Below are positions 5,651 to 63,855 of a stretch of 64,000 nucleotides of DNA, in pieces (position 1 is the first letter of the stretch; every line of letters begins with the position of its first letter). Origin of the DNA: Dehalococcoidia bacterium (GTDB taxonomy: Bacteria; Chloroflexota; Dehalococcoidia; UBA2979). The DNA is taken from contig OZ253555.1 of the NCBI GenBank assembly GCA_965262725.1, positions 64,001 to 128,000 of the forward strand, written 5' to 3'. Both the position numbers and the translations under genes were made by a program. The notes beneath the pieces were generated by a model. The model was not told the origin of the DNA, did not search any database, and saw nothing but the letters and a program-made list of their open reading frames with translations.

Positions 5651-5729
5651 CCTTCGCCTGTGCTGCCACCGTGCCTGAGCGTCAGTTTGGCTAACTGGGG
5701 TTGCCGTTCTAGTTCTCACCGGGTACTCA
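5651..5729 (+). repeat. Eroded tRNA-Arg 3'-half/att-like site
   Basis: TGCCACCGTGCCTGAGCG-TCAGT-TTGGCTA-ACTGG-GGTTGCCG-TTCTAGT...CCGG. Confidence 0.6.
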
Positions 5730-5773: not shown

Positions 5774-7558
5774 TCAGGGGAGGAAGAGCTGCTGCCAGCG
5801 CGCCGAGCCCCGGCCCCAGCAGTCGACGGAGCCGTCCGGCCGAACGCCGCAGCTGTGGTCACGTCCCGAGCTGACCGAGACGAACGGCCCGGGCGGGGGT
5901 GTCGCCTCGCCGTAGTCGTCGAGGCCCCAGCAGATGACGGCGCGGTCGGTTGCCACCGCGCAGGTATGGTCCGCCCCCGAGCTGAGGGAGGTGAACGTTC
6001 CGCGTGGTGGTGTGGAGCGCCCGTGCCCGTCCCGGCCCCAGCAGGAGGCGGAGCCGTCCGGCCGGAGGCCGCACGCGTGGCTCCAGCCGGCGCTGACGGA
6101 GGCGAACGTCCCGAGTGGGGGCACGGTCTCGCCGTCGGTGTCCTCGCCCCAGCACGCGAGGGAGCCCACGGCCGTCACCCCGCAGTAGTAGCGCGGTCCG
6201 GCGCTGAGGGAGAGGAACGTCTCCTCCGGTGGCTCGGCCGAGCCACCCCCCTCCGAGCCCCAGCAGACGAGCGTGCCGCCCGGCCGGAGGCCGCAGGTCG
6301 AGAACCACCCGGTGCTGACGGAGGAGAAACTTCCTGCGGGCGGCGTGGCCCTGCCGAACTGGTCGTTGCCCCAGCAGGAGGCGGAGCCGTCTCGCCTGAT
6401 GCCGCAGCTGTGGTACCTCCCGGAGCTGACGGAGCGGAACGTCCCGTCGGGTGGTATCGCCTGCGGGGAGCTGCCCGAGCCCCAGCAGGTGAGCGATCCG
6501 CCCTTCCGCACGCCGCAGGTGTGCTCCGTGCTCGCGCTGACGGAGGCGAACGCTCCGTCCGGCGGCGAGGCGCGCCCGCCGCCGTCGTGGCCCCAGCACA
6601 CGAGGGCGCCGCCCGGTCTGACGCCGCAGCTGTGTAGGACGCCCGCGCTGACGGAGGCGAACCTCCCCGCAGGTGGTGTGGACTGACCATCCTCGGTGTT
6701 GAAGCCCCAGCACTCCACCTCGCCGCCTGGCCGGACGCCGCAACTGTGGAGGTGCCCGGCGGTCACGGAGGCGAACGCCCCGGGGGGGACGTCGATGAGC
6801 GGGTCCCACCCCCAGCAGTCGACGGCGCCACCCGGCCGGACGCCGCAGCTGTGGAGGACGCCCGCGCTGACGGAGACGAACCTCCCGTCGGGCGGGGTGG
6901 ACTGGTGGTTCTCGTCCGATCCCCAGCAGGTGATCCAGCCGTCGGCGGCCACCGCGCACGTGTGGCCGGTCCCCGCGCTGAGGGAGAGGAACCGTCCCGC
7001 GGGCGGCGTCGACCGCGTGGTTCCATCGAGAGCCCAGCAGTCGACGGAGCCATCCGGCCGGAGGCCGCACGTGTGCGCCCCCCCGGCGCTGACGGCGGTG
7101 AATCTCCCGGGAGGCGGCGTCGCCCGCCCGCCACCGCCGTCGCCCCAGCAGGTGGCGGTGCCGTCTGTCCTCACCCCGCAGGTGTGTGCCGTCCCGGCGC
7201 TGACGGAGGTGAACGTCCCCGGAGGTGGCGTGGCCCGGCCGCTCTCGTCGCTCCCCCAGCAGAGAACGGAGCCGCCGGTCGTCACGGCGCACGTGTGGCG
7301 GGTGCTGGCGCTGACGGAGGCGAACGATGCCGGGGGGTCGGTGGTTTCAACGGAGTGCGCCTCCTCCGCGCCGCCGGGGCTCGGGGTGGGGTTCGGCGGA
7401 TCACCGGCCCGGCCGGGTGTTCCGTGTTCCCCGGGAGTGCTGGCCGGTGCGTGCGGCAGAGAGCCCGGTTCGGGCGAACAGGCGGCCGCGAGCGCGAGCA
7501 CCGTCACGAGGGCGAGCGGGCCGGCCCATCGCCGGCGCTGGGGGCGATCGGATGCCAT
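5774..7558 (-). CDS. RCC1-like repeat lipoprotein
   Basis: Lipobox LAAAC, Pro-rich linker, 14 tandem FxSVSAGxxHxCGxRxDGxxxCWG repeats. Confidence 0.92.
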   Translation of the reverse strand: MASDRPQRRRWAGPLALVTVLALAAACSPEPGSLPHAPASTPGEHGTPGRAGDPPNPTPSPGGAEEAHSVETTDPPASFASVSASTRHTCAVTTGGSVLCWGSDESGRATPPPGTFTSVSAGTAHTCGVRTDGTATCWGDGGGGRATPPPGRFTAVSAGGAHTCGLRPDGSVDCWALDGTTRSTPPAGRFLSLSAGTGHTCAVAADGWITCWGSDENHQSTPPDGRFVSVSAGVLHSCGVRPGGAVDCWGWDPLIDVPPGAFASVTAGHLHSCGVRPGGEVECWGFNTEDGQSTPPAGRFASVSAGVLHSCGVRPGGALVCWGHDGGGRASPPDGAFASVSASTEHTCGVRKGGSLTCWGSGSSPQAIPPDGTFRSVSSGRYHSCGIRRDGSASCWGNDQFGRATPPAGSFSSVSTGWFSTCGLRPGGTLVCWGSEGGGSAEPPEETFLSLSAGPRYYCGVTAVGSLACWGEDTDGETVPPLGTFASVSAGWSHACGLRPDGSASCWGRDGHGRSTPPRGTFTSLSSGADHTCAVATDRAVICWGLDDYGEATPPPGPFVSVSSGRDHSCGVRPDGSVDCWGRGSARWQQLFLP

Positions 7559-8388: not shown

Positions 8389-8652
8389 TCGCCTCGTTGG
8401 GTTGAGTGTTGAGAGTCTACCGCCGAACCCAGCGCCATGCCCGCTCGCACACGGGATCGGGGGTGGCCCGGCCCGAGCGATCGCAGGGGCCGGTTCCCGG
8501 CAGGCCCGTCCGGTCGGGACTCACCAATCCCAGATGCCACCCGGCCGACACCGTCGCTCAGTTGGCCAAGCTGGCGCTCGGGCCCTGCAACGATTCGGTC
8601 CCTTGTCTGGCCTCGTAGGATTAGCGCCGAAGTTGGAAAGGGCGTCGGCGCA

Positions 8653-14717: not shown

Positions 14718-15074
14718 ATGGTCTCCGCTCCAATGCCCGACATCATGACGTTGATCGAGAGCGCCCCCTGGCGAGAGGCAGTGACCTACCGCGACACGTG
14801 GCCCCACGAGTACGTCGTGGCTGGCCGCGATCGCCAGGAAGCGCTGCTCGCGGCGTTCTGTGCCCGCATCGCGCATGGCGAGGGTGTCGAATGCTGCTTC
14901 TTCGGACAGACGCGACGATATCTCTTCCTCGGTGATCACAAGTACTGGACGATGACCGACTGCGCCGAGATCGACCTCGCCTCCGACGACTACGTCCTCA
15001 ACCGCGCACGCCTCTACCGCGACCGCCGCGACTTCGACGTGCGGGCTGGCGACCGCGGTGTGAGGGACGAGTAG
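14718..15074 (+). CDS. Hypothetical protein
   Basis: APWREAVTYRDTWPHEYVV...YLFLGDHKYWTM...VLNRA; high-GC3 codon usage; start uncertain. Confidence 0.75.
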   Translation: MVSAPMPDIMTLIESAPWREAVTYRDTWPHEYVVAGRDRQEALLAAFCARIAHGEGVECCFFGQTRRYLFLGDHKYWTMTDCAEIDLASDDYVLNRARLYRDRRDFDVRAGDRGVRDE

Positions 15075-15246
15075 AGGTCCGGTAGGCTGACCCGCCGACG
15101 GCGGTGACCTCGTCTGCTCGCAGACACAGAACTCGGACGGCTCCGTACGCGGAGCGTCGAGGCCATCGCGCGGCCGGAGCGAATCCGCAGCTTCGGCGAC
15201 CTGCACATCGAGCGAGCCAGTGACCGGCCCCCCGAACTCACCTCGC

Positions 15247-15317
15247 GCATGCCGCCCCGCATGAGCATCAGTGCGGACAACTGATGGTTCGGTGTTCGAA
15301 TCGTCCCCGGCCCGCAT
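15247..15317 (+). repeat. tRNA-Arg 3'-half/att-like site
   Basis: GCATGCCGCCCCGCATGAGCA-TCAGT-GCGGACA-ACTGA...TTCGAAT...CCGGC; 33/43 identical to the tRNA outside the loop, gapless. Confidence 0.8.
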
Positions 15318-15859
15318 CCCCCGCTCGTCCCGCAGTCATGTGCTGGTGGGGCCCCGCCCCGTCACGACCACGGCACGGAAGAAGGGAACAGCCATGCACT
15401 CGGTAGCGTTCAGCGACGCCGACCGCGACGCACCTTCGCTGATGAAGTAGAGGAATTTGTCCCCGCGTGGTGTGGTCAGCCCGGCGTCGACCGGATCCGT
15501 GGACGCCGTGACGGCGGCAGATCCGCCCACGATGAGGCGGCGGCGCGGGACCTCTGGCGCCACTGAAGCGCGGCCTGTGGGTTGTTCCGGCCTCGACCCG
15601 CAACCGCGGCCCGGCATCGCTCCGCCGGCTACCTGCCGGGGCATTGTCATGACCGCCCTCCCAATGCATGGCGCTCAACATCACCGTTGCGAGGGCGAAG
15701 TTGGCGTCCCGGAAGCTGATGCCCGCGAGGACCGTCCTGACCGGGTCCGTGCAGCGATAGATCCCTGGGACCCCCGTTGCAGCCGGCCCGATGAGAACAA
15801 CAGTGAGGACAGCAAGCAGGGGAGACTCCGCCGAGCATGGACCGCCGCGCCATCGTCGC

Positions 15860-16450
15860 TCAGGTGTGGCGAGTGCGACGGGCCATCACGACGGCTCCCG
15901 CTGTGGCCAGCACGACCGCCGCGACAAGCAGCGACCAGTGCGCGGTGTCGCTCGCCGTCGGCTGGGCGTCGGTCAGACCGGTTCCTGCCGCAGGCGGCTG
16001 CGGAGGCACGGCAGCCTCCCCGGAGTCAGCCACGCCGGCGCCGCCTGGCTGGCCCGCGTCCAGCAGGGCCACCTCGTCCTGTGCGTACTGTAGGGGGACC
16101 GTTCCTCCGCAGAGCCACACCTCCAGTGCTTCATCGAAGGCGTAGACGAGGTACTCCCCTCCCTGCTCGAAGGGGTAGCCGCAGTCTCCCCACCCGAGAC
16201 TCGATGTCGTGACGACGATTTCGGAAGCTTCCGGGCCCTTCCACACGCTGTAGACGTCGAACGTGATGTCAACGGGATAGTCGCCGCTGATGGCGACGGC
16301 CCTGCCGGAGAAGACTGCGGCGGCGTCCTCGAACGCCTCCAGCGGCGCGAGCGGGGCGCAGCTGCACGCGAAGGCGCGCTCGGTGGTCGCTGCCGGAGAC
16401 AGGCCGAGGAGGACGACGATGACGGCAAGACGGAGGAACGAGCGACGCAC
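15860..16450 (-). CDS. Secreted TIMP/NTR-like protein with a C-terminal sorting-like signal
   Basis: Signal peptide AFA|CSC, VFSG, WKG, DCGYPF, YLVYA; C-terminal PAAGTG + TM helix + RRTR. Confidence 0.85.
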   Translation of the reverse strand: MRRSFLRLAVIVVLLGLSPAATTERAFACSCAPLAPLEAFEDAAAVFSGRAVAISGDYPVDITFDVYSVWKGPEASEIVVTTSSLGWGDCGYPFEQGGEYLVYAFDEALEVWLCGGTVPLQYAQDEVALLDAGQPGGAGVADSGEAAVPPQPPAAGTGLTDAQPTASDTAHWSLLVAAVVLATAGAVVMARRTRHT

Positions 16451-16854
16451 CGAGGAAGCCTATCAGATGTCATGAAGGTCGGTCCCCGCTTCGGAGGGGT
16501 GACGACGGGCCGAGGGGCACGGCTCCGTGAGCCGGGCGCACTGCGCTCGCAACCTGGGTCCTCACGAGCGGCCCGTGAGCGCGGACGTCGATCGGCACGA
16601 TTGCGGGTGGGCTGTACGCGTTCGAGCGGCTGAGTGGTGACCACCGTGAGCTGATCGCTCTCATCGCGTCGACCTTCGAGGCGATGGGTGCCCGGCGTGA
16701 CGTTCTATCGCCGGCACGATGAGATCGTGCTGTACCTTCCCGTATCCGGGTCGTAAGCGAGTGGGGTGTTCTGCGGCGGGACAACGGGAGTGACAGCGCG
16801 TCATCCCGACCTCACGCGTGCGCTCCAGCCGGCAGCTGCCTGGGCGTTCATCGG

Positions 16855-16925
16855 GCGTACCGTCGCGGGCGACGCTCAGTTCATGGGACTGGGGGTCGAG
16901 GTTTCGAGTCCTCCCTGGCGCGCCA
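16855..16925 (+). repeat. tRNA-Arg 3'-half/att-like site
   Basis: TCAGT-TCATGGG-ACTGG-GGGTCGAGGTTTCGAGTCCTCCCTGGCGCGCCA; 38/43 outside the loop. Confidence 0.9.
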
Positions 16926-17193
16926 CCTCCGCTCCATGCCTCCTGCATGCGATGTCGCGACCACCGACAGATCGTCGATGTCGTCCGGCGGTGGACGCCG
17001 CACGGGCGGGAGCAGTCCGTGGCACCACCACCTCCCGGAGATCATCAAGCGGCAGCGAGAAGAAGAACCTGCGGGTGCGCGCCGGGCTCCAGGTCTCCCT
17101 GAGTGCGCGTCTTTCGACCCATGCCTCTCCCTATTCGAGTTTCGAGTGGTGAGAAGTCGGCCGTCGGTGGTCCTGCGGGCGAGGCAATCGTGC

Positions 17194-18465
17194 TCAGTTC
17201 GGCCGCTGGGGCACGGGCCGTGACGGATCCGCGATAGTCGTATCGCCCTCCGGGCTTGCGAGACCTCGCTCGAATGCCGTGAACGCCTCGATGAGCTCCG
17301 GCGCCTCGAACGCGCGGTTGCGGCGGCCAACCGTGATCTGGACCAGGATCCCCGCGCGAACCAGTTGGTCCATCGCCTGGGTCGTCGCCCGCAGCGAGCG
17401 GCCGATGAGATCCGCGGCGACGGACGTGGTCAGGACCGGCGCCTCGGGGAGCGCGTCGATGAGCAGGCGGAGCGCCGAGCCGCCCCGCGCGGGACCCGCT
17501 CGCTCGAGCCATTCCGCCTGGAGCGCCTGCACCCGCTCCTCGAAGCGCGCAGCGTCGCCCGCGGCACGCAGGCAGGCTTCGGCGGCGAGCGCGACCCAGC
17601 GGTCGAAGCCGTCGCGCGCCTCGGTGCTATCGGACGGCCCGACGTAGCGCGTCGCGGTCAAGCCGGCCACGTAGGCCGAAGACCATGTCGCCAGCACCAG
17701 CGAGATGGGCGGTTGGACGCGGAGCCCCAGGCCGCGGCGTCGCAGCACCAGATGGATCAGGGCACGGCCCACGCGTCCGTTGCCGTCCACGAACGGGTGA
17801 ATGGTCTCGAACTGCGCGTGCGTGATCGCTGCCTGGACCAGCGGTGGCCACGCATCGGCGCTGGCGAAGGCGCAGAGGTCATCGAACAGGTCCTCCACGA
17901 TCTCCGGGGGTGGCGGCACGAACGCCGCGGCGCACGGGTTGTACCCGGAGCTTCCGATCCAGTTCTGCCGGTCTCGCAGGCGCCCGCCGTGTTTCTCGAG
18001 CGGTGTGCCGGCGAGCAGCAGGCGGTGCATCTCCAGCAGGACAGCCGGTTCAATCGGGTCGCCAGGCCCCACCGTCTCTACACCCATCGACATTGCGTCG
18101 ATGTTGGCCAGCACCTCCTCGGCTGTACGGTCGCGCGGGTCATTGCCGAGACGGCGCGCCGCATCGGCACGGAGCAGCCGCCGGCCCCCGACCACCAATC
18201 CTTCGATGCGAGACGACGCGACCGATTCGGCGCGCAGGATCAATCGGGCGAGGGAGTGGCTGCCGGCGAGCGCGGTGGCCGATTCATCGAGGCGCACGAG
18301 CGCGGCCTCGGCCGCGGCGACATCCGCGGTGACCTCGCCCGAGAGCGCGAAGTCGCGGCCGGCGAGTGGATCCGGCAGGTATGTGTCGTAGTTGCAGGGC
18401 CGCCGGTCGCGGTAGGTTTGCCCCGTCGGGCTTCCCTGCCACTGTCGGCGCTCGTAGCCAGCCAT
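17194..18465 (-). CDS. Fic-family protein (class II, autoinhibited) with C-terminal HTH
   Basis: HPFVDGNGRVGR catalytic motif; SSRIEG inhibitory motif; AGAGAGG RBS. Confidence 0.95.
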   Translation of the reverse strand: MAGYERRQWQGSPTGQTYRDRRPCNYDTYLPDPLAGRDFALSGEVTADVAAAEAALVRLDESATALAGSHSLARLILRAESVASSRIEGLVVGGRRLLRADAARRLGNDPRDRTAEEVLANIDAMSMGVETVGPGDPIEPAVLLEMHRLLLAGTPLEKHGGRLRDRQNWIGSSGYNPCAAAFVPPPPEIVEDLFDDLCAFASADAWPPLVQAAITHAQFETIHPFVDGNGRVGRALIHLVLRRRGLGLRVQPPISLVLATWSSAYVAGLTATRYVGPSDSTEARDGFDRWVALAAEACLRAAGDAARFEERVQALQAEWLERAGPARGGSALRLLIDALPEAPVLTTSVAADLIGRSLRATTQAMDQLVRAGILVQITVGRRNRAFEAPELIEAFTAFERGLASPEGDTTIADPSRPVPQRPN

Positions 18466-18540
18466 ATCAACCTCTCTTGCTGAATGTTATCACCTAACCT
18501 CCTATATGGAGCCGTACTATCGGAGGTTAGGGTCGCCCGC

Positions 18541-18573
18541 GCTTCGCCTGCGCCGCCTCAGCCCCTGAGCGTC
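18541..18573 (+). repeat. Isolated left arm of the att-like repeat
   Basis: 26/33 identical to 5651-5683; ends at the TC of TCAGT. Confidence 0.55.
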
Positions 18574-18574
18574 C

Positions 18575-18632
18575 GAGCGCGGCGTGGCCCTCAGCTATCT
18601 CTCCGAGATCGAGCGCTGTCGCAAGCCAGGCT
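18575..18632 (+). pseudogene. XRE-family HTH fragment
   Basis: ERGVALSYLSEIERCRKPG. Confidence 0.6.
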
Positions 18633-18956
18633 GCGATCGCAGCATTGACTGGTAGCGCCGGGACCTTCAGCAGGACCATCGACGCCCTGGTAGTCGACTG
18701 ATCGTCATCCGGCTCGTGGTACCCGGTGGCGGGCGCGCCCGAGCGCCAGCCTCATGGACTTGGGGGTACGGGCCGAGCTCGATGGCCGCACGCTTTGTTG
18801 AGACTTCCGTCCGGCCACGTGGGGGCTCGGTCTTGTTGAGTGGCAAGCTCGCCGGGTGTGACCGCATGTGCGCGTAAGCGGGTTTGCCGATCTTGTCGCT
18901 ATGCTGATATTCTCGTATGCGGACCACTTGCAGACTGTTAAGTTCTAGGTTAGCGT

Positions 18957-19328
18957 GTGATTACGCTCAGGCTAGTTCGTCGAGGCGACCAGAAGACGCT
19001 CTACGCGCTAGCGCAGGAGAGCGGCAGGTGTCGCTACGAGAAGTTCATCGATGCGCTCGTTGAGAAAGATCGCATCAAGCTGACCAGTCTACTTGACCGT
19101 ACCGTAAGCCACGGGCTACCGCGGAATACGCAGAGATTCAAGCACTTGGAGGACGGGATCTATGAGTTCAAGTCCGATCAGCACCGGCTTCTGTGCTTCC
19201 AATTGCCCGACAATTTGATCGTCATCACACACGGTCTCACCAAGAAGAAGAACAGAATGCCCCGGGCTGAGATCGAGCGGGCAAAGCGAATGCGAACCCA
19301 GTTCTTGGAAGCGGGAGGAGCGTCGTGA
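18957..19328 (+). CDS. RelE/ParE (HigB/Gp49-like) toxin of a TAC operon
   Basis: FKHLEDGIYEFKSDQHRLLCF...ITHGLTKKKNRMPRAEIERAK; possibly leaderless (TAGGTT 5 nt before GTG). Confidence 0.9.
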   Translation: MITLRLVRRGDQKTLYALAQESGRCRYEKFIDALVEKDRIKLTSLLDRTVSHGLPRNTQRFKHLEDGIYEFKSDQHRLLCFQLPDNLIVITHGLTKKKNRMPRAEIERAKRMRTQFLEAGGAS

Positions 19329-19741
19329 TCGAGAAGGCGGGGTTGCTCGATCGGTATGTCGAGGAATACGAGCGAAATCCGCAGTACGTCGCTGAGGGCT
19401 TGGCGATCGACCTGCTGGAGAATGCCATCTTCATCATGCAACAGAAGAAGCTCACACGAGCGGAGGTCGCACGGCGTATGGGCATCTCGCGCTCCGCTGT
19501 GAGTCAACTCTTTGGGCGGGGTAGCCATAACCTGACTCTGCTCACAATGGCAAAACTGGCCGATGCCATTGGCTCGGAGTTCCGCTGCTACGTCGACGAC
19601 CGCGTGCTTGGCGAATCGCTGCGTGCGCCCGCTCCGGTGCCGGACGACAGCTTCGGATTCATCGAGCGATTCATGGTCGAGATGGAAGGGACCGACGATG
19701 CCCCGGTTCAGGACCCTACAGCAGTCGCGGCTGCAGCCTGA
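19325..19741 (+). CDS. XRE-HTH antitoxin with C-terminal extension (ChAD-like)
   Basis: LTRAEVARRMGISRSAVSQLF...NLTLLTM, then a ~50 aa tail ending AVAAAA; GTGA overlap. Confidence 0.9.
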   Translation: MIEKAGLLDRYVEEYERNPQYVAEGLAIDLLENAIFIMQQKKLTRAEVARRMGISRSAVSQLFGRGSHNLTLLTMAKLADAIGSEFRCYVDDRVLGESLRAPAPVPDDSFGFIERFMVEMEGTDDAPVQDPTAVAAAA

Positions 19742-20162
19742 CTTCTTCTGGGTCGACCGGTTCAGCTTCGAGACGCGCCCCGATCGCCAGGAGCGTGCCG
19801 GGAAGGCCGTGGGCGTCAAGGCAAACATCCAGTTCAAGGGGAGCGCCGATGACGAGGCTGGCGTTCTCGTCCGACTGGCTCTCGAGAGCTCCACGTCCAA
19901 GCATGATGGCTCGCCCTACGACTTCGCACTGGATGTCGGCGCCGTCTTCAAGATCGCGAACGATGATGACCCAGTTTCGCGGCGCCGACTGATCCGCTAC
20001 AACGCACCCGCTGTCTTGTATGGCCTCGCCAGGGGCTATGTGGCGTCGGCCACCGCGATGGGGCTGACCCTACCGCTCATGCTGCCGTCCGTTGATCTTG
20101 TTGAATTCCTGAGCCCGCGACCCGCGTTGGAAGAGCGGGCGAGCGAAGCCCCAGTCCCATAG
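19698..20162 (+). CDS. SecB-like chaperone of the TAC operon
   Basis: PYDFALDVGAVF...NAPAVLYGLARGYVASAT...PLMLPSVDL. Confidence 0.88.
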   Translation: MPRFRTLQQSRLQPDFFWVDRFSFETRPDRQERAGKAVGVKANIQFKGSADDEAGVLVRLALESSTSKHDGSPYDFALDVGAVFKIANDDDPVSRRRLIRYNAPAVLYGLARGYVASATAMGLTLPLMLPSVDLVEFLSPRPALEERASEAPVP

Positions 20163-20194
20163 CCTCGGTCGACCCCCACGCGCTTCGGCTCGCG

Positions 20195-20265
20195 GCGTGC
20201 CACCGGGCATGACCATCAGTTCGGGCAACTGAGGGTCGCGGGTTCGAATCCTTCCCGGCGCGCCA
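20195..20265 (+). repeat. tRNA-Arg 3'-half/att-like site (best preserved)
   Basis: GCGTGCCACCGGGCATGACCA-TCAGT-TCGGGCA-ACTGAGGGTCGCGGGTTCGAATCCTTCCCGGCGCGCCA; 42/43 outside the loop, 2/7 in the loop. Confidence 0.97.
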
Positions 20266-20406
20266 CCCTCCGCTGCGGGGGGGGGGGGGGCAGACTCCAC
20301 CGAGCTAGGCACCGGGCGGTCGGGGGTAGACGTGTGAGTTCCGGCGCTGACAGCGACAGCCCTTGGGCCAACCGGAATGCGCGGCGTCGCGAGATCGCCC
20401 GCAGCA

Positions 20407-21423
20407 TCAGTGCCCATTGGCCCTCGCTTGAAGGTCCGCGCACCGTCTCATGAGATCGTCGAACGACTCGGCACTCTCGAGCAGCATGCCGTCGCTCACC
20501 ATCCTGGCGTAGTCGTCGGCTAACGCGTCGTACGCAGAGCCGTCCGGCACGAGTTGCAGGTCCCCCGCGACCGCCGCCTCGTAGTCGATCACGTTCCCCT
20601 TGGCGTCGTTCGCCCGGTAGAACATCGACTTGTGCCGTGCAACCGCCATCGCGAGCGACCGGTCGGCGAGCGCGGCCCATCCATAGCCAGCATCATCCAA
20701 CCGCACGAGGTCGTGCCAGTGCCGGGAGAGACGCCCGCCCCGCTGTCGCTGCTGGCGGCAGAAGACGTGTACGGCCGTCGCCTTCTCCCAGAATGTACGC
20801 TCGGCCAACATCACGAAGACGCGGACCGAGGGGAACGCGACTTCCGATATCTCTGCGGCTGCGTCGCACTCGATTGCACGCGCCTCGCGAGGCTCACCGC
20901 TTGAGCGGGCACCGAACTCCACCAGCACCTCGGGCTTTACGAACCCGGACCCCGCGACCAGCGGCGTGTAGTTGACGAATATGCGGTCTCCGTCAGCACG
21001 AAGCTGAACCGCCAGACCGGCCCGGCGCAGTCCCGTATCGACAGCCGGCAACGCATGCTCCTTCACCCACCCCGGCAGCCGCCGCCTGATCTCCCGCGTC
21101 CAGCGTCCCTCCTGGCTGCGGATGGCGGGAAGCGCCTCGTCGTCACCGCCCGCCACCAGGTCAGGCGCGAAGGCGCGGATGTCGAACGTCATGTCGAGGT
21201 CTTCCGAGAACCGTCGAATCGCGTGATACGCCTTCGACAACGAGGTGCCGCCCTTGAAGGTCAGGTGCTCGCCAAACGGCGCTTCTGTGAGCGTCTGCAA
21301 CGTCCGGACGACCCAGATGTCCTTCTCCAGCAGATGCGCGGGGCGCCCGCTGCGGCTGGATGCGACCTCCAACGTGTCACGCCGGTCATCGTCCGAGAGC
21401 GATTGGAACGAGGGGCTATCCAT
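20407..21423 (-). CDS. abiEii: AbiEii/AbiGii nucleotidyltransferase toxin
   Basis: LEKDIWV, FKGGTSLSK, RFSEDLD, ERTFWEKAT, RHWHD. Confidence 0.95.
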   Translation of the reverse strand: MDSPSFQSLSDDDRRDTLEVASSRSGRPAHLLEKDIWVVRTLQTLTEAPFGEHLTFKGGTSLSKAYHAIRRFSEDLDMTFDIRAFAPDLVAGGDDEALPAIRSQEGRWTREIRRRLPGWVKEHALPAVDTGLRRAGLAVQLRADGDRIFVNYTPLVAGSGFVKPEVLVEFGARSSGEPREARAIECDAAAEISEVAFPSVRVFVMLAERTFWEKATAVHVFCRQQRQRGGRLSRHWHDLVRLDDAGYGWAALADRSLAMAVARHKSMFYRANDAKGNVIDYEAAVAGDLQLVPDGSAYDALADDYARMVSDGMLLESAESFDDLMRRCADLQARANGH

Positions 21424-22012
21424 TGGCAAGCAGGGCGCTCACCGGCTCGGCGATCCAAGCTGGCATCACAGCGCGCGCCGCCGCCAACTCCTCAACGTCC
21501 TGGTGCGAGAGCCTGCGCTGGATTGCCTCCAGGCTTGTCTCCACTTCCTCGGGGCCCAACCAGGCCAGCGCCCGCACGGCGTCGCCTGCGGGCCGGTGGG
21601 GTGCCACCAGCTGCCACCGGGGAGCATGACGCAGTGCGACCGTCACTTCGCCGAATTTCAATCGCCGGTCGGGGCCCGATGTCAGGTAGACCGACCGCAC
21701 AGGGACCTGCGTGGTGAGGCCGAGCGCATTCGCCTCGGCGCCGCCGCAGGGAACGATCGTCTCTCCCCGGAGCTTCGACAGCGACGCGATCACCTTGTCG
21801 ACGGCAGGCGGTCGCGGACCGAAGCGGGTTGCGATGGGCGTGACGTACATTCCCTGGCAGAGCCGCAGCAGGCGTCCGTTGCGGGTCAGACGGGACAGCG
21901 CCTGGTCGATCGCCGTTCTGCTCCCCAGATGTAGCAGTGACTTCGGGTGCAGCACGGTGCCTTCGGGTAGGTCCGAAGCGTATTCTAGTAGGAGTTGCGG
22001 CAGGCTTCTCAT
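21416..22012 (-). CDS. abiEi: AbiEi-type antitoxin (DUF6088)
   Basis: AIDQALSRL...GMY...ANALGLTTQVP...YLTSG; overlaps the toxin start. Confidence 0.9.
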   Translation of the reverse strand: MRSLPQLLLEYASDLPEGTVLHPKSLLHLGSRTAIDQALSRLTRNGRLLRLCQGMYVTPIATRFGPRPPAVDKVIASLSKLRGETIVPCGGAEANALGLTTQVPVRSVYLTSGPDRRLKFGEVTVALRHAPRWQLVAPHRPAGDAVRALAWLGPEEVETSLEAIQRRLSHQDVEELAAARAVMPAWIAEPVSALLANG

Positions 22013-22032
22013 GGTCACGTCGATCCGCTTGA

Positions 22033-22060
22033 TGTCAGTAAGATATGGTGATTTCTGACG
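22033..22060. promoter_or_regulatory. Inverted repeat, likely abiE autoregulatory operator
   Basis: GTCAGTAA-N10-TTTCTGAC just upstream of abiEi. Confidence 0.55.
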
Positions 22061-22184
22061 CATCTCAAGCCCCGGGTCTCTCGCCATGCTTCCCCCGCCC
22101 AACTCCCAAGCAGGATCACGGAGCGGCGGGAGTCCTCACACCAGCACTCCCGAGGTGCCCGAGGTACAGACGACATCCGCGAGC

Positions 22185-33581: not shown

Positions 33582-33645
33582 CGGGCCCGCCGCGCATGAC
33601 CCTCAGTCTGCTGAACTGAGGGTCGAGGGTTCGGATCCGTCCCAC
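33582..33645 (+). repeat. tRNA-Arg 3'-half/att-like site
   Basis: GGGCCCGCCGCGCATGACCC-TCAGT-CTGCTGA-ACTGAGGGTCGAGGGTTCGGATCCGTCCC; 30/32 through the T arm outside the loop; acceptor end lost. Confidence 0.92.
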
Positions 33646-33720
33646 GACCATCTCAAGAAGGTCGGCCAAATCGCGAATTTCCAACCAAACCGCCCCCGCG
33701 CCGTCCGCTGTGTTCACCCG

Positions 33721-33784
33721 CTCAGAACGAGAGCTCCAGATACAACTTGGCGCACCCCTTTTCGCACGACCGTAGCTTCATGCC
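33721..33784 (+). repeat. 64 bp direct repeat, copy A
   Basis: Matches 41167-41231 with 3 substitutions and 1 indel. Confidence 0.9.
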
Positions 33785-33929
33785 TTGTTTCCTCCCGTGG
33801 TGAGAAATCGGCCGGCGGCGGTCTCGGATATCAGCACCCTCGGCAGGGGCGAGCTCGCCCCGCCGAATGTCAGCCTGGAGCCAGCCCGCAATCGAGTAGG
33901 GCGCGCGTGCCTTCCAACCGTGAACTGCC

Positions 33930-34140
33930 CAAGCCGGCGGCTGCTCCGCGCCCAGGCCGCCCACCAGCTCGGCGAGGAACCGCGCGATGTCACCGCCGTG
34001 GAGGTGCTCGGGAACATCGAGGCGATGCTCTGGGTCGTGGAGGCGGTGCTGCCTGGGCGAACGATCACTGTAGAGATCGTGCTCGAGGCGCATCGGCGTC
34101 TGCTCGCGGGGACGCGCCTCGCGGAGCACGCGGGTCGCTA
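33930..34140 (+). pseudogene. Fic-family remnant paralogous to 17194-18465
   Basis: RRLLRAQAAHQLGEEPRDVTAVEVLGNIEAM...HRRLLAGT aligns with RRLLRADAARRLGNDPRDRTAEEVLANIDAM...HRLLLAGT. Confidence 0.85.
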
Positions 34141-34186
34141 TTGCAACTGCTTGAACGATAACCATTGATACTTCTACCATCCATCA

Positions 34187-37100
34187 GTGCAGAATCTTTC
34201 TCGATTCTGGCAGTTGGCGGGTGTGCAGGCTGGCGCCAGGCGCGCATCCGCTCGCCGGGGGGCGCCACCCCGGCGGCGCTCCTTCGCCGTGGTGGTGTTG
34301 CTTGGCCTGCTTGGGGCGCTGGCCTCGCCCGTCGCCGCCCAGATCCCACCGAGTACCGACGCCACGCTGAGCGGCCTCGAGCTGAGCCAAGGACGGCTCG
34401 ATCCGGCCTTCGCCACCGGCACGAGCGACTACACGGCCGCCGTGGGCTACACGGTCACACGCATCTCGGTCGTACCCAGCACGACGGACGCCAACGCTAC
34501 CGTCGCCTACCTCGACGGCAGCGACATGCCCCTGGCCGATGCCAACACGGTCACGGACGAACAGGATGTGGACCTGGTGGTGGGCGAAACCGTCGTGAAG
34601 GTGAACGTCACTGCCGAAGACACTTCCACCGTGCTGACCCACACCGTCACGATCACGCGCACGGAGGAGGACACCTCGCTGAGCCCGACGGCCAGCGATC
34701 CCTCGATCGCATTCGCTACCAGCGCGGTCTACCGGGTGACGTTCACCGGCGACTGGACCAGTTCGGCCACTCCGGGCGGTCTGCCCAGCGGCGCCCACTT
34801 TTCCCGATTGGTCGGCGCCGTTCACAGCGCGAACGTCACCTTTGTTGAAGGAGGCGAGACTGCAAGCGCCGGAGTCAAGTTGATGGCGGAAGTCGGCGTC
34901 ACGTCGGACCTTGGGGTCGAAGTGACCGCAGCCATGGCCGATGCGCTCTCGGTGCTCAAGGGTTCCAGCAACATCAACCGGACCAGCACCCAGAGCCTGA
35001 CGACCACGCTAACCAGCGATCATCCCCGGGTCACGCTGCTGAGCAGGGTGTCGCCGAGCCCGGACTGGTTCGTCGGCGTCTCGGGGCTACTGCTGCTCAA
35101 CTCCGATGGCCACTGGCTGCGCTCGCACCAGGTAGAACTCTACCCCTGGGATGCCGGCACCGAGGATGGCGGCGAGTTCTTGCGGACCAACGATCCGACC
35201 GTGCCGCCGGGTGAGATCACGAGCATCCGCGGCACCGGCAAGTTCTCGACCGAGCCGATTGCGAGCCTGACCTTCACGCTCGAATCGGTCAGCACCACCC
35301 GCAGCGTCGACGAGAACACGGAGGCGGGCGTCACCATCGGCGAGCCGGTCGTCGCCCCCGACAGCAGCGGCACGGTCACTTATTCCCTGGGCGGAACGGA
35401 TGCCGCATCGTTCGATGTCGTCGCAGCCACCGGCCAGCTCCAGACCAAGGCCGCGCTCGACTACGAGAGGAAGTCCAGCTACGAGGTCACAGTCACCGGC
35501 ACCGACACGGATGGCTCGGTCACCACCACCGTGGCGATCGAGGTCACCAACGTCATTGAACTCGCAACGTTCTCAGGTCCGACGATGGTCACGTTCGCCG
35601 AGAACGGCGCGACCCGCGTGGCGACGTTCAGCTATTCGTCGGACGAGGATCGGGACGGCATCCAGTGGTTGACGGGCGGGGTAGATCGCGGGCTCTTCAG
35701 CCTGGACAGCCCATCTGGCGCGCTCAGGTTCCTGCAAGCGCCGGATTTCGAGAACCCGTTGGATGTCGGGCCGCCGGGTCGCGGAACAGACAATAGCTAT
35801 GAGCTGAAGTTGGTGGCGTGGGCCAGAGACAGTGGTCCGATATTCACCGACGAGGTAGATGTCAAGGTCACGGTCACCGACGTGGACGAGGCCGGCGCGT
35901 TGTCGCTGTCTTCGACCCGTCCCGCGCTGGGCGCCGTGCTGACCGCCGTCCTCACCGACCCGGACGGCGTGACCGCCGGAACGGCGGTCTGGCAGTGGGA
36001 GAGGTCCACGGGCCGCCTGGCATGGAACGTGGTCGGCGGCGCGACCCTTGCCACATACACCCCGATGGCCGCGGACGCTGGGCACTACCTGCGGGTGAGC
36101 GCGTCCTATACCGATGGTCACGGCTCCGGCAGGACGGCCCAGACGGTGGCGCCCAACGTGGTGCTGGCGCGAACACTGAGCAGGCTTGAGGTCGCCACGA
36201 CCTCCTCAAGACAGATGTATCCCGCGTTCGACCCTGAGATTCTCCACTATGCCGTGGGTTGCATCGCGGCGGACACGCTCAGCTTGACACTCTCGACGAC
36301 GGACACCGACACCCGCCTGGCGGTCGACGGCGTCCAGTACGCCAATCAGAACACGGTCGTCGCGTTGACGGACAAGGGCGGCGGGAGCGACATCCTGATC
36401 ACGCTCGGCGGCGGCGGCGATGGTGCAAGCACCACCTACACACTGCACTGCCTCGCCGAATCTTTCCCCACGCTCACCGTGACCAAGCTCGACGGCGCGT
36501 CGGAGTCATTGATGACGGCCTCATTTGGGGTCAGCAGTGGCGTGGCGCACATTGCGATTATCGATAACAACGGCGTACCTCGGTTTCGGCGGCAACAGAC
36601 CGCAGCAGGGCACTTCAGGGCGTACCCGGACGGCGGATATCCCTATGCGTTAGCCGTCACAAGTGAACCGGCGTCATATGTCGTGTACGATGCAAATCTA
36701 GACCTTGTCCAGAGCGGGATCTCAACTGTCAATCTCCAGAACACTAACGGGTATGACTTCTTCATCAAATCGAACGGCGACTATGTGCTGATGGCCTACG
36801 AGCCTGCCGTACGTGATATGAGCTTCATTACTGAACGATACGGCCTGACCCACGGCAACGGTGATCCATTCGGCCCCGCCGAGGACACGGAGGATGCAGT
36901 TATTCAGGTCGTCTCGCCCACCGGTCGAGAGCTGTTCCTGTGGAACTCCTGGGATTACATGGCGCTCGAAGACTGTACGCAACATCGCTTCCCCGATGAC
37001 TACGCGCACATCAACTCGGTACAAGTCGTCGATGGGGACATCGTCGCCTCATTCCGGGGCTGCTCGAAGGTGTTGCGAATCGACGGGACCAGCGGCGAGG

Positions 37101-40100
37101 TGATCTGGCGACTGGGCAGGAGCAACCTCAGTACAGAGGAGTGGGAGAGCCGTGACATCGGCCCGCCGCCGCTGCAGATCGTCGGCGACCCCTATGGGGA
37201 GTTCTGTGGGCAGCATGCTGCGCGCTTGCTGGACAACGGCCACCTCATGCTCTTCGACAACGGCGTGGAGTGCCTCGAAGATCCGCGAACGGGCGAGACG
37301 GAACGAGTCGGCCGAGAGTTCAGCAGAGTCGTTGAGTACGCCATCGATCTGGACCACGGCGAAGCGATCTTCCAGCGTCACGTCTTTCTCCACGGCCGCA
37401 TGGACTCCTTGTCGTACTCGATGGGTCAAGCCGATCCGCTGGACAACGGAAACTGGTTGATCACCTGGGGTAGAGGCATCCGAAACCCCAATCCCGACCA
37501 CCCCCCTCCTGACGTGTCGGGAACGCAGGTGAATCCAGCGACCGGAGTCGAAGAACTCACGGTCGTCGCCATGAGCGGCGGCAACGTGATGACCGCAGGC
37601 CGGATGTACCCCGTGGCGCCGGTGGCGCTGGCGGCCGAACCCATCGCCCTGACGGCTGAGTTCCCCGGGAGCACGTACACATCAATCTTCAACCTCGGCG
37701 CCACCGATCCGCCGCAGGTGGTCGTGGCCTTCAGCCGTCCCGTGGTCGACTTCGACGAGACGTCGACGTCGCTCAGCGTCACGGGCGCGACAGTCGCGAG
37801 CGTGAGCGCTCACGTTGTCGCTGGTGAGCCGGCCAACGCCTACCTCGTCACACTGGCGCCGGACGGCGACGGTGCGATCAGCTTCCGTCTCGACACCGGT
37901 CAGGCCTGCGGCGCCAATGGCGGCATCTGCACAGCTGACGGGACAGCGCTGTCGGAGGCGCCCTCGGCGCTGGTGATCAGTGCTCCCGTCACCGTCTCGT
38001 TCGAGCAGTCCACTTACACCGTCACCGAAGGCGCCTCGCGGTTCGTGACCGTTCTCCTCAGTTCGGCCCACCAGGGCGTCCGCAGTGTCACCATCCCGGT
38101 CGTGCGGCAACAAACCACGGGCAGCGCCTCGGCCGATGACCTCACCCTGGACGAGAGCGTGACCTTCGAGGCAGGCGAAACCCGCAAGTCGCTGGCGTTG
38201 AACGCCACCGACGACGACCTCGTCGAGGGCGACGAGACCGCCACGATCGAGTTCGGCGCGCTGCCGGACGGCGTGACCGCCGGGTCGACCTCGACGGTGA
38301 CGCTCACCGACGCGGATCAGGCGCAGATCGCCTTCACCACCGTCGTAACGCAGATCTCCGAGGGGGGCCAGACGCAACTCAGCTTCGAGATCACGAACGG
38401 CGTCACGTTCGAGGTCGACCAGACCATCAATCTCACCGTCGGCGGCACGGCCACGGCGGAGGGCGACTTCACGCTCGTGGACGCCGGCAACCAGACGCTG
38501 TCCGATCCCTATGCCGTCATGTTCCCTGCGGGCGCGACCTCCGCCGAGGCGACCATCCGCGCAGTCGACGACGCCGACATCGAGCACGCGGCGGAGACGA
38601 TCACGGTGAGCGCACAGCTCGGCCTGACGGGCGCCACGCTCGGCACGCACACGGTCACGATTCCTCCCAGCGACGTGCCCGACACGCCGGTCGTCACCAT
38701 CGCCCCGGGGAGCGCCGTGTCCGAGGGGCAAGACGCCACGTTTACGCTCTCCCGCACGGTGACCCAGAGCCTGCCGCTCTCGGCCCCCCTGACGGTGTCC
38801 GTGGAGGTCACCGCCACGGGCTCCACACTGAGCGGTTCGCCGGCGCCGACCGTTCGCTTCGAGGGCGGCGACGCCACGGCCGACCTCGCCGTGCTCACAC
38901 TCGACGACAGCGTTGTCGAGCCCCCCGGCACGGTGACGGCCCTCATCCAGGGCAGCACGAGCAACCCCCCCGTCTACCTGACCGAGCCGCCTAACAACGC
39001 CACGGTGACCGTGAACGACAACGATGTGGCGGCCTTCACGCTCTCGGCCAGCAACGAAGAGGTAGCTGAAGGTGCCGCGGTCACGGTGACCATCGTGGCC
39101 GACGGTGTCACCTTCGCCGGGCCCCAGACGATCACGCTGACGCTCGGCGGCACGGCCACGCCAGTGGATGACTTCACGCTCGTCGACGGCGGCCGGGAGC
39201 TCTCGAACCCGTACGTCGTGACGCTGCCGGCCGGGGCCAGATCGGTGAGCGTGATGATCATGGCGGTGACCGATTCCGAGGACGATGCCGACGAGGCCAT
39301 CGATCTCTCCGTCAGCCACGAGGGCAGCGGTATCGGGAGCGTCACCATCACCATCACAGAAGCGCCCATCATTCTGCCGCCCGTCATCACCGGCGGTGGC
39401 GGCGGCGGCGGCGCGCCGTCCGGCCCGGTCCCCAGCGATGTCGAGTTCGAGTGGAACGTCACACGCGACATCGAGGAGCTCGCCAGCGGCCACGACGACC
39501 CGACCGGTGCCTGGTCCGACGGCGTCACGCTCTGGATCGCCGAGAACGGCTCCGGCGCCGCCGACGCCATCTACGCCTACGACCTCGAGAGCGGCGAACG
39601 CGTCGAGGACCGCGAGTTCGACCTGGACGCAGGCAACCTCGCGCCTCGTGGCGTCTGGTCCGACCGCACAACCATCTGGATCTCCGACAGCGGCAAGGAA
39701 AAGCTCTTCGCGCACGACCTCGCGAGCGGCGAGCGCCTCCCCGACTCCGACCTCGCGCTGCACCCCGACAACGACGACCCGCGCGGCATCTGGTCCGACG
39801 GCTCGACCATGTGGGTCCTCGACGACCGCGACGACGCCCTCTTCGCCTACGACCTCGCCGGTGGCACGCTGCTCGCCGAGTACGCCCTGCACGACGACAA
39901 CGACACGCCTCACGGCATCTGGTCGGACGGCGTCGGCGTCTGGGTCTCCGACCACAACGACAAGCGTCTCTTCGCCTACCGCCTGCCCGCCCTCGAGGAG
40001 GAGGACACGAGCGCGGACGAGGACGTCGCGGACGAGGAAGAGGACCTTGAGCTCGAACGTGTCACGGACGAGGAGTTCAAGAAACTCTCCGGCGCCAGCA

Positions 40101-41089: not shown

Positions 41090-41166
41090 CGCGCGGGATG
41101 ACAGGCACTGCACGTACGACCGAACTGCATGGGTCGCACTCGCGCTGGGTAGGGGGCTGACCAGCC

Positions 41167-41231
41167 CTCAGAACGAGAGCGCCAGATACAACCTGGCGCA
41201 CCCCTTTTTCGCACGACCGCAGCTTCATGCC
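41167..41231 (+). repeat. 65 bp direct repeat, copy B
   Basis: Contains the perfect hairpin GCGCCAG-ATACAAC-CTGGCGC followed by ACCCCTTTTT. Confidence 0.9.
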
Positions 41232-41349
41232 GATGTTTGTGGAGTGGTGCTGGACTCGCCCGATCGACACAGCTCCGAGCGCCGTCAGGGCGGTTGGTCC
41301 GCCGCTTCAATCACAACCTGGCGAGCCCCTCGGGAGGCGCCAGTGCTCC

Positions 41350-41390
41350 CGACGCCCAGTTCGAGCAACTGGGTGTCGGGGGTTAGGGCT
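41350..41390 (+). repeat. Eroded tRNA-Arg 3'-half/att-like site
   Basis: CGACGC-CCAGT-TCGAGCA-ACTGG-GTGTC-GGGGG-TT; the outer stem pair is C/G instead of T/A. Confidence 0.55.
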
Positions 41391-61169: not shown

Positions 61170-61350
61170 CGAGGCGTGATGACCGGGCCGAGGCCGGTAC
61201 ATCGTTGGTGCGATCTGCCCGTTCAAAAGCATGGTCCGGGAGCCCTGCGACTGCATCACTGGTGACGTCCCGTCGGGGCGATCCCGTTCGGTAGAGTGTC
61301 GGTCTGGTCGTGGCTCCCTCCGGTCACACGCCCACGCTGTGGGGGAGGGG
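61170..61350 (+). ncRNA. Putative bridge RNA of IS110 element B
   Basis: TATAGT at 61159; TCAAAAGCA (61223) and TCGGTAGA (61288) match the two junctions; boundaries approximate. Confidence 0.6.
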
Positions 61351-61358
61351 GCGAGAGG

Positions 61359-62798: not shown

Positions 62799-63654
62799 TT
62801 AGTCGGTAGACGCGGCCAGCTTCGACTCCAGTACCTCGAGTTGCCGGTTGATCTCCTGGAGCTGGGCAACCTGGGCGAGCACGCTGTCTGCGAACGCCTC
62901 GCTGAGCGCGGGCGCGACCGGGAGCGTGCGGAGGCGGAGTACCTCGCGTATCTCTTCCGCCCGCGTGTCCAGGTTGCGCTTGCGGCCTCCGCGCCTGAGC
63001 GCCGCGCGGAGCTGCGTCCGCGTCAGCTTCGCCGCCGCGAGCGACTCCGGGGCGACGGCCAGCACCGAGAGCGCATCGGGATGCGTGAGGTCGGGGAAGG
63101 CCTGGAGCGCGGCCGGGAAGTACTGCAGCAGCGCGCTGCGCAGCCGGTTGCTCTCGCGGGTGCGATTCCAGACCAGCTGCTGCTGGGCGCGGGCACGCAC
63201 CTGCACGGCGGAGGCGAGGGCGCTGTCGCCCGCGACCGGCCGGTGGTTGTGGCTGTCGGTGCGAACGAGGTTCGCGAGCATGCGCGCATCGCCCCGGTCC
63301 GACTTCCCGCCGCCGACCTGGTGTCGCTCGCGGTAGAGGGCCGCCACCCGCGGATTGATGGCGTAGACCCGGTAGCCCGCGCCGATGAGCGCTGCGACCC
63401 ACGGGCCGCGGTCGGTCTCGATGCCGACCACGACCTGGCCGGCCTCCTGTGCATGCTCGGCGAGCAGCGCATGGAGCGCGGTCATGCCCTCCGCTCCCTC
63501 GGGGAGTCGCTTCGCCGCGAGGCTCTCGCCCTCCTCGTTCATGAGATGGACATCGTGATGGTCCTCGGCCCAGTCGTCCCCCACGTACACCGTCAACCCG
63601 TGCTCCCTTCCGTCCCACCTGTCCGTCCCACCTGTCCGTCCCACCTGGCTGGCT

Positions 63655-63855
63655 AAACCCACGGGGCTGCTCCGCAACGAGCTAATGGCACGGTGCTCTA
63701 CCGGCACGACACCCCATCAGTGCATCGCAGGCCCGAACGAACCAGCCGGGGCACGGTCTACCACTGGAGGTCGCAATCGCCTCAGCTGTTACTAGTGCTC
63801 TCCGGCTGGCGGGTCCGGAACCAGTCTCCCGGATCGCTCTGGTCCTCTGGTTCGG
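63655..63855 (-). ncRNA. Putative bridge RNA of IS110 element A
   Basis: Four guide-like segments in LTG-RTG-LDG-RDG order matching target and donor; boundaries approximate. Confidence 0.8.

Follow-up and report, generated by a model that had tools for sequence, protein, structure and literature searches.

The window (the whole 64,000-nucleotide stretch analysed here) holds a single tRNA gene, a functional tRNA-Arg(TCG) at 2610-2685 on the plus strand, which ARAGORN reports as the sole tRNA of these 64 kb and on which Rfam concurs. Downstream of this gene, which anchors the array, runs a 39-kb row of cargo blocks that contains no integrase and is punctuated by at least eight boundary sites; across the 64-kb window as a whole, no tyrosine or serine recombinase gene was found, and PF00589 gave no match. 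The 3' strand of the D stem, the anticodon arm and the variable loop of the tRNA read GAGCA TCAGT CTTCGGA ACTGA GGGTC, and the gene is a natural member of the palindromic family to which the boundary sites belong (22.5 bits with the site HMM). The CTTCGGA loop is kept in the tRNA-Arg of all relatives searched. The blocks between the sites measure 1.6 to 13 kb and carry several genes, on both strands. They include an RCC1-repeat protein (5774-7558, minus strand; PF13540, E=3e-84), a Fic/DOC protein between the sites at 16876 and 18742 (17194-18465, minus strand; PF02661 and PF13784), an AbiEii toxin with an AbiEi-like/DUF6088 antitoxin directly right of the site at 20216 (20407-22102, minus strand), and a 2300-aa surface protein with Spondin_N, cadherin and Calx-beta parts that fills the block from 33603 to 41356 (34187-41089, plus strand). 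Further cargo comprises a DUF6508 protein, a SecB-like protein, an HTH-peptidase M78 protein, ABC-2 transporters and an RNase T-like exonuclease, together with four frames in low-GC DNA that have no Pfam match. The RCC1 and the Spondin_N/cadherin/Calx-beta proteins are both eukaryote-like repeat proteins.

The site at 20202-20265 (plus strand; HMM 34.6 bits), called 20216 below, consists of a left arm, GCATGACCA TCAGT (20207-20220), a foreign 7-nt spacer, TCGGGCA (20221-20227), and a right arm, ACTGA GGGTC (20228-20237), 3' of which a T arm, an acceptor strand and CCA run on to 20265, the tRNA 3' part matching at 32/33. When window positions 20190-20265 were aligned to tRNA-Arg(TCG) position by position, 42/43 letters of tRNA positions 27-76 outside the loop proved identical, the lone mismatch being A50 to C, whereas the anticodon loop agrees at 2/7 (TCGGGCA vs CTTCGGA; Fisher exact P=5.7e-5 for the loop against the rest) and the 5' part upstream of the stem at 13/26. 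The original prediction had given the same tally, 42/43 outside the anticodon loop and 2/7 inside it, and had called the loop replaced rather than drifted; both statements are borne out by the alignment, since with one change in 43 positions outside and five in seven inside, the loop cannot be a product of drift. Directly after the CCA and 11 further letters, downstream of the abiEii gene, lies a run of 14 G (20277-20290), which is 7 letters shorter in contigs of two other sequencing runs (X1 and X10) and is a length-variable homopolymer.

A first BLAST of the tRNA against the window recovered only three relic copies. The pattern TCAGTT-N5-AACTG with up to one mismatch gave 14 matches over both strands against 0.13 expected from shuffles, and every core that had been listed beforehand is present on the plus strand, at 5682 (TGGCT), 15268 (CGGAC), 16876 (CATGG), 20216 (CGGGC), 33603 (TGCTG) and 41356 (CGAGC). 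Going downstream, all on the plus strand, site 5682 (5668-5708, core 5682-5698; TCAGT TTGGCTA ACTGG; HMM 26 bits) has no recognisable T arm, and site 8558 (8553-8584; TCAGT TGGCCAA GCTGG) is degenerate, with a minus-strand HMM match (E=0.019) and a right flank homologous to that of a site at genome position 1625591. Site 15268 (15254-15317; TCAGT GCGGACA ACTGA; also matched by the HMM) continues into a decayed T arm and acceptor that match the tRNA 3' part at 26/33, and site 16876 (16862-16925; TCAGT TCATGGG ACTGG) into a tRNA 3' half matching at 29/33 and then into the post-CCA flank CCTCCGCTC, which is the flank of the live tRNA in the sister genome G003. A hidden degenerate site, 18742 (18734-18770; CCAGC CTCATGG ACTTG), scores 3.3 bits with the HMM alone and is backed by the homology of its left flank to that of a site at genome position 1869510. 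Beyond 20216, site 33603 (33589-33643; TCAGT CTGCTGA ACTGA; 35.5 bits) combines a near-native loop (5/7) with a partial T arm, and site 41356 (41342-41382; CCAGT TCGAGCA ACTGG GTGTCGGGG; 22.8 bits) is the last strong site of the array.

The tRNA 3' halves at 15268, 16876, 20216 and 33603 follow tRNA-Arg(TCG) in the same orientation and match it at 26 to 32/33. At 16876 and 20216 the CCA is followed by CC(C)TCCGCT, as at the live tRNA of G003, which implies that these two sites are displaced former 3' ends of the tRNA gene. The best-preserved junction, 20216, does not adjoin the tRNA and stands fifth in the row, or sixth if the degenerate 18742 is counted, so simple one-by-one accretion at the tRNA fails to explain the order. 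When the T arm was tested at 30 sites, only five exceeded the random maximum of 27/33; most sites lack a T arm, and such sites were not made by joining to the tRNA.

The row lies in a larger island. In G004, a genome of the same genus, the DNA downstream of tRNA-Arg matches the present genome from about 139 kb onward, and the roughly 72 kb that are missing there thus form an island relative to G004. G003 has a parallel array downstream of its own tRNA-Arg, with four sites whose centres (TTGGCTA, TCGAGGC, GTGGACA and TCATGGC) resemble those of the present genome in a different order and with blocks that are only partly shared and are placed differently. Site arrays thus adjoin the tRNA gene in both genomes whose tRNA-Arg neighbourhood was read, this one and G003.

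A gapless alignment over 41 nt of 28 sites, drawn from this genome and five relatives, shows that they share a palindrome of about 31 bp, GAsCnYCAGT-N7-ACTGRGGGTC, centred on the loop and with about 11 bp in each arm. Such a palindrome around a 7-nt centre is what would be expected of a tyrosine-recombinase core, which usually has two half-sites in this geometry. A search of the 3.67-Mb genome yielded about eight further sites of the same kind, all with a left motif near GCATGAGCA directly before the stem. This motif was considered as a gene end or start and rejected, as the frames ending at its TGA have 2-83 codons and the opposite-strand frames starting from its CAT 19-237, which is inconsistent. 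A tblastx comparison of 2.5-kb flanks of the sites found no gene in common.

Mean entropy over the 28 sites is 0.46 and 0.66 bits in the two arms, 1.45 bits in the centre and 1.50 bits in the outer flanks, arm conservation partly reflecting how the sites were found, with the right arm beyond ACTGR lying outside the strict search pattern. In variability, the spacer equals unrelated flanking DNA. Although 84% of arm cells are complementary across the 28 sites, covariation beyond plain conservation is not significant, the observed score having been reached in 32/500 shuffles and the paired-cell share in 26/500; in orthologous site pairs, the arms are conserved no better than the flanks. The outer stem pair is T-G in 11 sites, T-A in 9, C-G in 6 and otherwise in 2, so that the C/G pair noticed earlier at 41356 is real, but its description as compensatory is not supported, given that arm covariation over the 28 sites is not significant. 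As for the idea that a recombinase reads either the palindromic stem or a single-stranded hairpin, the half-site geometry supports the former, and the covariation result does not support the latter. The arms suit a pair of protein-binding half-sites better than a selected hairpin.

One could also suppose that the palindrome has a function other than recombination, as a REP-like repeat, a hairpin terminator or an operator, and resembles an anticodon arm by chance. A conserved stem, a free loop, an intergenic position and some 10-20 copies per genome in one genus would all suit such a role. We nevertheless regard it as extremely improbable, as stem covariation is not significant, the sites coincide with homology breaks between genomes and with true tRNA 3' halves, arrays adjoin the tRNA gene both here and in G003, and Rfam has no match at the sites. 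The roughly 10-20 copies are clustered in islands, which, like the covariation result, is not a feature of REP/BIME elements.

A covariance model built from the 28 sites gave 26, 12, 11 and 21 matches in this genome, G001, G002 and G003, where a palindromic site may count on both strands. It gave three weak matches in G004, of the same genus, two in G008, two in G018 (one of them the tRNA gene) and none in G033, G081 or G014. The strict pattern matched in 10/99 genomes of the family, three of these matches being the tRNA gene on the reverse strand. A scan of viral contigs gave 0 matches. A scan of a genome collection returned 11 loci, eight of them in sister MAGs or a co-sampled bin and the other three in Bacteroidia, Hyphomicrobium and Mycobacterium, which are more likely chance matches or the site of another tRNA. 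A metagenome scan returned 19 loci, three of which clearly belong to the site family. Three family sites (L102, L104 and L109) lie in DNA of 64-67% GC, on contigs that belong to a MAG with the label Gammaproteobacteria; this MAG and G002 come from one sample series. These sites are either mis-binned Chloroflexi DNA or a sign of transfer between co-resident bacteria. About 6% of the words of window positions 15000-21500 recur in four sponge-metagenome runs, and these runs, with the titles of sister MAGs, hint at a sponge-associated lineage.

The 7-nt centres can be grouped into a small number of types, which turn up again with unrelated flanks elsewhere in this genome and in three sister genomes. 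TCGGRCA, near variants included, is found at 20216, at 41356, at genome positions 1677636, 2536234 and 1650797, and in G008, G002 and G003; TCATGG at 16876, at 18742, at genome positions 2540643, 2564106 and 2600078, and in G003; TTGGCYA at 5682, at 8558, at genome position 1625591, twice in G003, and in G008; and CTGCTG at 33603, twice in G003, in G002, and on one metagenome contig. The exact TCGGGCA of site 20216 is found again at genome position 1677636, in G008 and, between degenerate arms, in G002, which indicates that the centre was inherited as a unit and that the loop predates the junction at 20216. In-place scrambling of the loop was rejected on the same ground, the same loops being found elsewhere. 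Copying from other tRNAs was rejected too. A comparison of the 23 distinct centres with the anticodon loops of 63 predicted tRNAs gave no exact match, so that the first outcome named beforehand as refuting a replaced loop, a match to the loops of other tRNAs sharing this 3' half, did not arise. Six matches come within one mismatch, all with other stems; among the tRNAs of the genome, the CAGT/ACTG stem is found only in tRNA-Arg(TCG). Two further proposals about the centre are not supported. It had been suggested that the centre records the previous site, whereas the loops are a few types that recur in different genomes with unrelated flanks on both sides; and that it locks the cassette in place, whereas orthologous sites differ at 1/7 loop positions, no more than their flanks do.

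The recurrence of a few centres raises the question of whether the spacer types act as compatibility groups, in the manner of lox and FRT spacer variants: like centres would recombine with one another, the flanks would be shuffled, and the junction between a foreign centre and a tRNA 3' half would have arisen once and been copied thereafter. Identical 17-mers do stand in unrelated surroundings, around TTGGCTA at 5682, G003:1098747 and G008:1902337 (flank identity about 0.5, which is background) and around TCATGGG twice in this genome, with unrelated flanks on both sides. A metagenome contig joins about 12 nt of the proximal left flank of 33603 to about 10 nt of the proximal right flank of a G003 site around CTGCTGA. 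Two blocks are bordered by like sites, Fic by two of TCATGG type and RCC1 by two of TTGGCYA type. However, adjacent sites have like spacers in 7/26 pairs against 3.8 expected (P=0.07), and in 4/19 when strong sites alone are taken (P=0.26), neither of which is significant, and 18742 shares its left arm with the site at genome position 1869510 while having a different centre. We consider this explanation very unlikely.

Another route to the same pattern would be an old relic in which the loop changed slowly by small indels and substitutions, while the 45-nt tRNA-like part was refreshed by gene conversion in a tract ending at the loop. TCGGACA and TCGGGCA do contain the TTCGG(A) of the tRNA shifted by 2 nt, as if 2 nt had been lost on one side and gained on the other, and the many repeated tRNA 3' halves of the genome are possible partners. 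The shifted match is weak, its chance being about 0.013 to 0.035 per loop, which is not significant after correction for about eight loop types; the copy has a C50 that is absent from the live tRNA and present at the site at genome position 1869510; and 45 bp is short for a conversion tract. Gene conversion thus appears highly improbable to us.

Homology between genomes breaks at the sites. Site 16876 matches G003:1124859 over a left flank of 200 nt or more (0.72-0.88 identity) and on through left arm, centre (6/7) and right arm; the two diverge after GGGTCGAG, where the present genome goes on with the T arm and G003 with unrelated DNA. Between the sites at genome position 2536234 and G008:503830, homology covers a right flank of 200 nt or more (0.8-1.0), the site itself and about 45 nt to its left, beyond which the two diverge. 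The degenerate site 18742 (at 18746-18762), which was noticed through contigs of a paralogous locus that aligned to the window, is about 90% identical to the one at genome position 1869510 over 180 nt of left flank and the left arm; here the likeness ends where the arm gives way to the centre, and the two sites have different centres. Site 8558 and that at genome position 1625591 share the centre type and the right flank, and not the left arm. From these last two pairs it follows that the centre is not always tied to the left side, and of the informative pairs, one links the centre to the left flank, another links it to the right flank, and a third to neither. A joint from 18728 to 20226, seen in three runs, was considered as an excision and rejected, as it represents the paralogous locus at genome position 1869510; none of the remaining joints was taken for an excision. 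No excised or empty form was found in the sequencing-run contigs aligned to the window, and the analysis found neither a circle nor an intact element that carries int, an attP and both junctions.

Other tRNA relics served as controls. Those of tRNA-Gly(CCC), Arg(TCT), Asp and Glu in this genome keep their native anticodon loop, and two relics of tRNA-Arg(TCG) itself, at genome positions 2606779 and 2616071, have another left flank, a native loop and identity from A29 onward. Six of the 19 metagenome loci are relics of tRNA-Pro(GGG) type with the same arms (TGACCR CCAGT ... ACTGG GGGTC), five with the loop CTGGGGG and one with CTGCGGG. Native or near-native loops in these other relics indicate that foreign centres are special to the tRNA-Arg site family. 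The genome also holds relics of tRNA-Leu and tRNA-Met. At genome positions 56087-56162, 10.5 kb left of the tRNA, lies a second copy of the tRNA 5' half with 55 nt of upstream DNA; 32 nt of the upstream part and 34 nt of the tRNA are exact, the match ends at T34, after the CTT of the anticodon loop, and what follows is a tRNA 3' part that has decayed and lost 8 nt by deletion. This suggests entry of an element from the 5' side, with a promoter and 5' half of its own. Together with the native-loop relics at 2606779 and 2616071, it indicates that at least one other type of element used tRNA-Arg(TCG) in the classical way.

By the textbook rule, phage-type integrases that act at tRNA genes need identity across the overlap region. 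An ordinary homology-dependent integrase would account for the foreign loop if its overlap were placed farther 3', within ACTGAGG or the T loop; the anticodon loop would then fall outside the block of identity between attP and attB and be free to differ, with no unusual chemistry. The identity to the tRNA starts exactly at A38/A39 and runs to CCA and about 9 nt beyond, like any identity block, and the T loop too is a 7-nt loop between inverted repeats. The other type of element at this tRNA had an off-centre overlap, since the copy at 56087 ends at T34 and those at 2606779 and 2616071 start at A29, and overlaps at this tRNA thus need not centre on the loop. The inverted arms are nevertheless symmetric about the loop and persist in sites without a T arm, the variable loop would fall inside a core-binding site, and the tRNA-Pro(GGG) relics, which share these arms, have a native or near-native loop, as would follow if the overlap were the loop. 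On balance, we think an overlap 3' of the loop rather unlikely.

The reading that we prefer, and that we consider probable, is that 20202-20265 is a relic att junction of attR type in a row of decayed, integrase-less elements piled up downstream of tRNA-Arg(TCG). Its right 45 nt, from position 38/39 to CCA, would be a displaced copy of the tRNA 3' half, and its left arm and 7-nt centre would come from the attP of the incoming element. The attP of this element family would have been a palindrome of about 31 bp that mimics tRNA positions 22-48 and carries an N7 other than the anticodon loop, and the joint between element DNA and tRNA DNA would lie at the 3' edge of the loop or slightly beyond it on the 3' side. 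Since the arms are symmetric around the centre and standard geometry puts the nicks at its borders, we infer that the loop corresponds to the overlap region. In that case, either the recombinase would have tolerated a mismatched overlap, joining TCGGGCA to CTTCGGA, or only the strand pair at the 3' border would have been exchanged and the rest left to replication; we put this forward tentatively, as a possibility that we stop short of calling probable. The original prediction had spoken of homology-independent recombination, and of this the foreign, inherited centre and the palindrome are upheld, while homology-independent exchange as such is plausible and unproven. The observation itself is solid.

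The only integrase gene near the array (genome positions 128119-129192, minus strand) lies 119 nt past the end of the window, which places it 61 kb downstream of the tRNA. Its orthologues are 76-78% identical in G001, G002 and G003, which are three of the four other genomes of the genus and the three that are rich in sites; in the fourth, G004, the best integrase match is at 36%, there is no strong site, and the whole block is absent at the tRNA-Arg locus. The G003 orthologue sits in the same place, 48 kb downstream of the tRNA, that of G002 shares its contig with a weak site 9.5 kb away, and a 65% orthologue in G033 is convergent with tRNA-Arg(TCG) at a distance of 105 bp. An integrase convergent with an adjoining tRNA gene is the classical arrangement of an integrase and its target. 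This placement of the orthologues, notably in G033, makes it most likely that 128119-129192 encodes a tRNA-Arg integrase, pushed away from the tRNA by later insertions, the kin that point this way being few and not independent of one another. No site was found beside this integrase or its orthologues and no recombinase gene beside any site examined, the G033 contig has no relic within the 21 kb to its end, and a tblastn search of 14 integrases of this genome against the 19 metagenome loci found none. Directly upstream of the integrase is a gene for a dnaE2-type error-prone polymerase (genome positions 129209-132673, minus strand); the block with this gene is missing at the tRNA-Arg locus of G004 and seems to be island cargo. 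An integrase also lies directly beside tRNA-Arg(TCG) in G035, G016 and G018, on the 5' side in G035, the only one of the three checked.

Integrases of Williams' sublocation class, such as that of pSAM2, cross over in the anticodon loop of tRNA genes, with the symmetric stem providing the core-binding sites. The sites here resemble those of such anticodon-loop integrases, among them mycobacteriophage att sites (PMC10865867), in their inverted half-sites derived from the anticodon stem, their 7-nt centre and the identity to the 3' end that rebuilds the tRNA; they differ in that the attP and attB of those systems share the loop, while here 5/7 loop positions differ. According to the same paper, overlap mismatches are typically strongly deleterious, and the CTnDOT and NBU1 integrases of Bacteroides tolerate them (PMC10865867). 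If the loop is the overlap, the enzyme of the present family would resemble those of CTnDOT and NBU1, tyrosine integrases that do not need overlap identity; NBU1 also has a tRNA gene as its target. The Xer-dependent phages CTX, VGJ and TLC of Vibrio cholerae, which integrate at dif, are described (PMC5357621) as having an attP without homology on one side of the central region and as being integrated by a single strand exchange that replication completes. They share with our sites the host-like attP arms, the non-homologous centre and the stacking of several elements at one site, and their catalysis by one strand pair, with the recombinase acting in trans, resembles the mechanism proposed here; they differ in using XerC/XerD and dif and not a phage-type integrase and a tRNA gene. 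In geometry, with arms of about 11 bp and a 7-bp centre, the sites are also like Xer/dif modules; a genome search that allowed up to 4 changes from a dif consensus returned no canonical dif.

With tRNA-borne islands at large, the locus has in common an intact tRNA at one end, 3' repeats within and absence of the region from the relative G004. A repeat identical across the overlap would require an overlap 3' of the loop. Were the loop itself the overlap, 5/7 positions would differ at 20216, and the loop differs in most sites. Tandem islands at tRNA genes and scattered partial tRNAs are reported for the tycheposons of Prochlorococcus (bioRxiv 10.1101/2020.12.28.424599), and such islands are catalogued in Islander (PMC4383910). 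The likeness to our array lies in successive integrations at one tRNA with older elements pushed inward and partial tRNAs at the borders, and in degenerate, integrase-less elements that remain with cargo and defence genes; the partial tRNAs of those systems are plain att copies, whereas here the stem is kept, the centres are non-tRNA ones of a few recurring types, and many sites consist of the palindrome alone without a T arm. That elements stack up at a tRNA gene and leave partial tRNAs within the island is thus known, and what is new is a family of anticodon-arm sites whose centre is other than the anticodon loop.

Programs that find islands define their ends by exact partial-tRNA repeats, and tRNA-arm sites with foreign centres would escape them. 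If the enzyme truly joins unlike centres or performs one strand exchange, integration would be hard to reverse, which could explain the filling of a tRNA locus with stable integrase-less cargo (Fic, AbiE, ABC transporters, RCC1 and cadherin-type surface proteins). With one pair of arms and many different spacers, the sites also make up a small, naturally occurring series in which spacer dependence could be tested directly. Could the array then be a cassette-capture platform anchored at a tRNA in one Dehalococcoidia genus, in which integrase-less blocks with a 31-bp palindromic site are inserted, excised and shuffled in trans by a tRNA-Arg integrase that is resident and by now stranded at the island's far end, with the 7-bp centre either ignored or serving as a label of type by which recombination between blocks is prevented? 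We hold this to be distinctly unlikely; if true, it would add a third kind of cassette system beside integrons and Xer/dif modules. The array lacks the features of an integron, as there is no integrase at its entry, the blocks are multi-gene, of 1.6-13 kb and on both strands, and each site is a simple palindrome around a centre of fixed length, 7 nt.

Far from any live tRNA-Arg, at genome positions 2600000-2616100, relics are piled up a second time. This pile includes a TCATGG-type site and two native-loop tRNA-Arg(TCG) 3' halves 9.3 kb apart, and one tRNA-Arg(TCG) 3' half abuts a 3' half of tRNA-Arg(TCT) that ARAGORN calls a tRNA; an integrase gene at 2602875-2603840 lies between two tRNA-Arg(TCT) relics. 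Within the window, a Mutator-family transposase occupies 54329-55552, a G003 copy of which matches ten places in the present genome at about 86%, one of them in the window, and two IS110-family (DEDD) transposase frames stand back to back at 61296-63707, near the right end.
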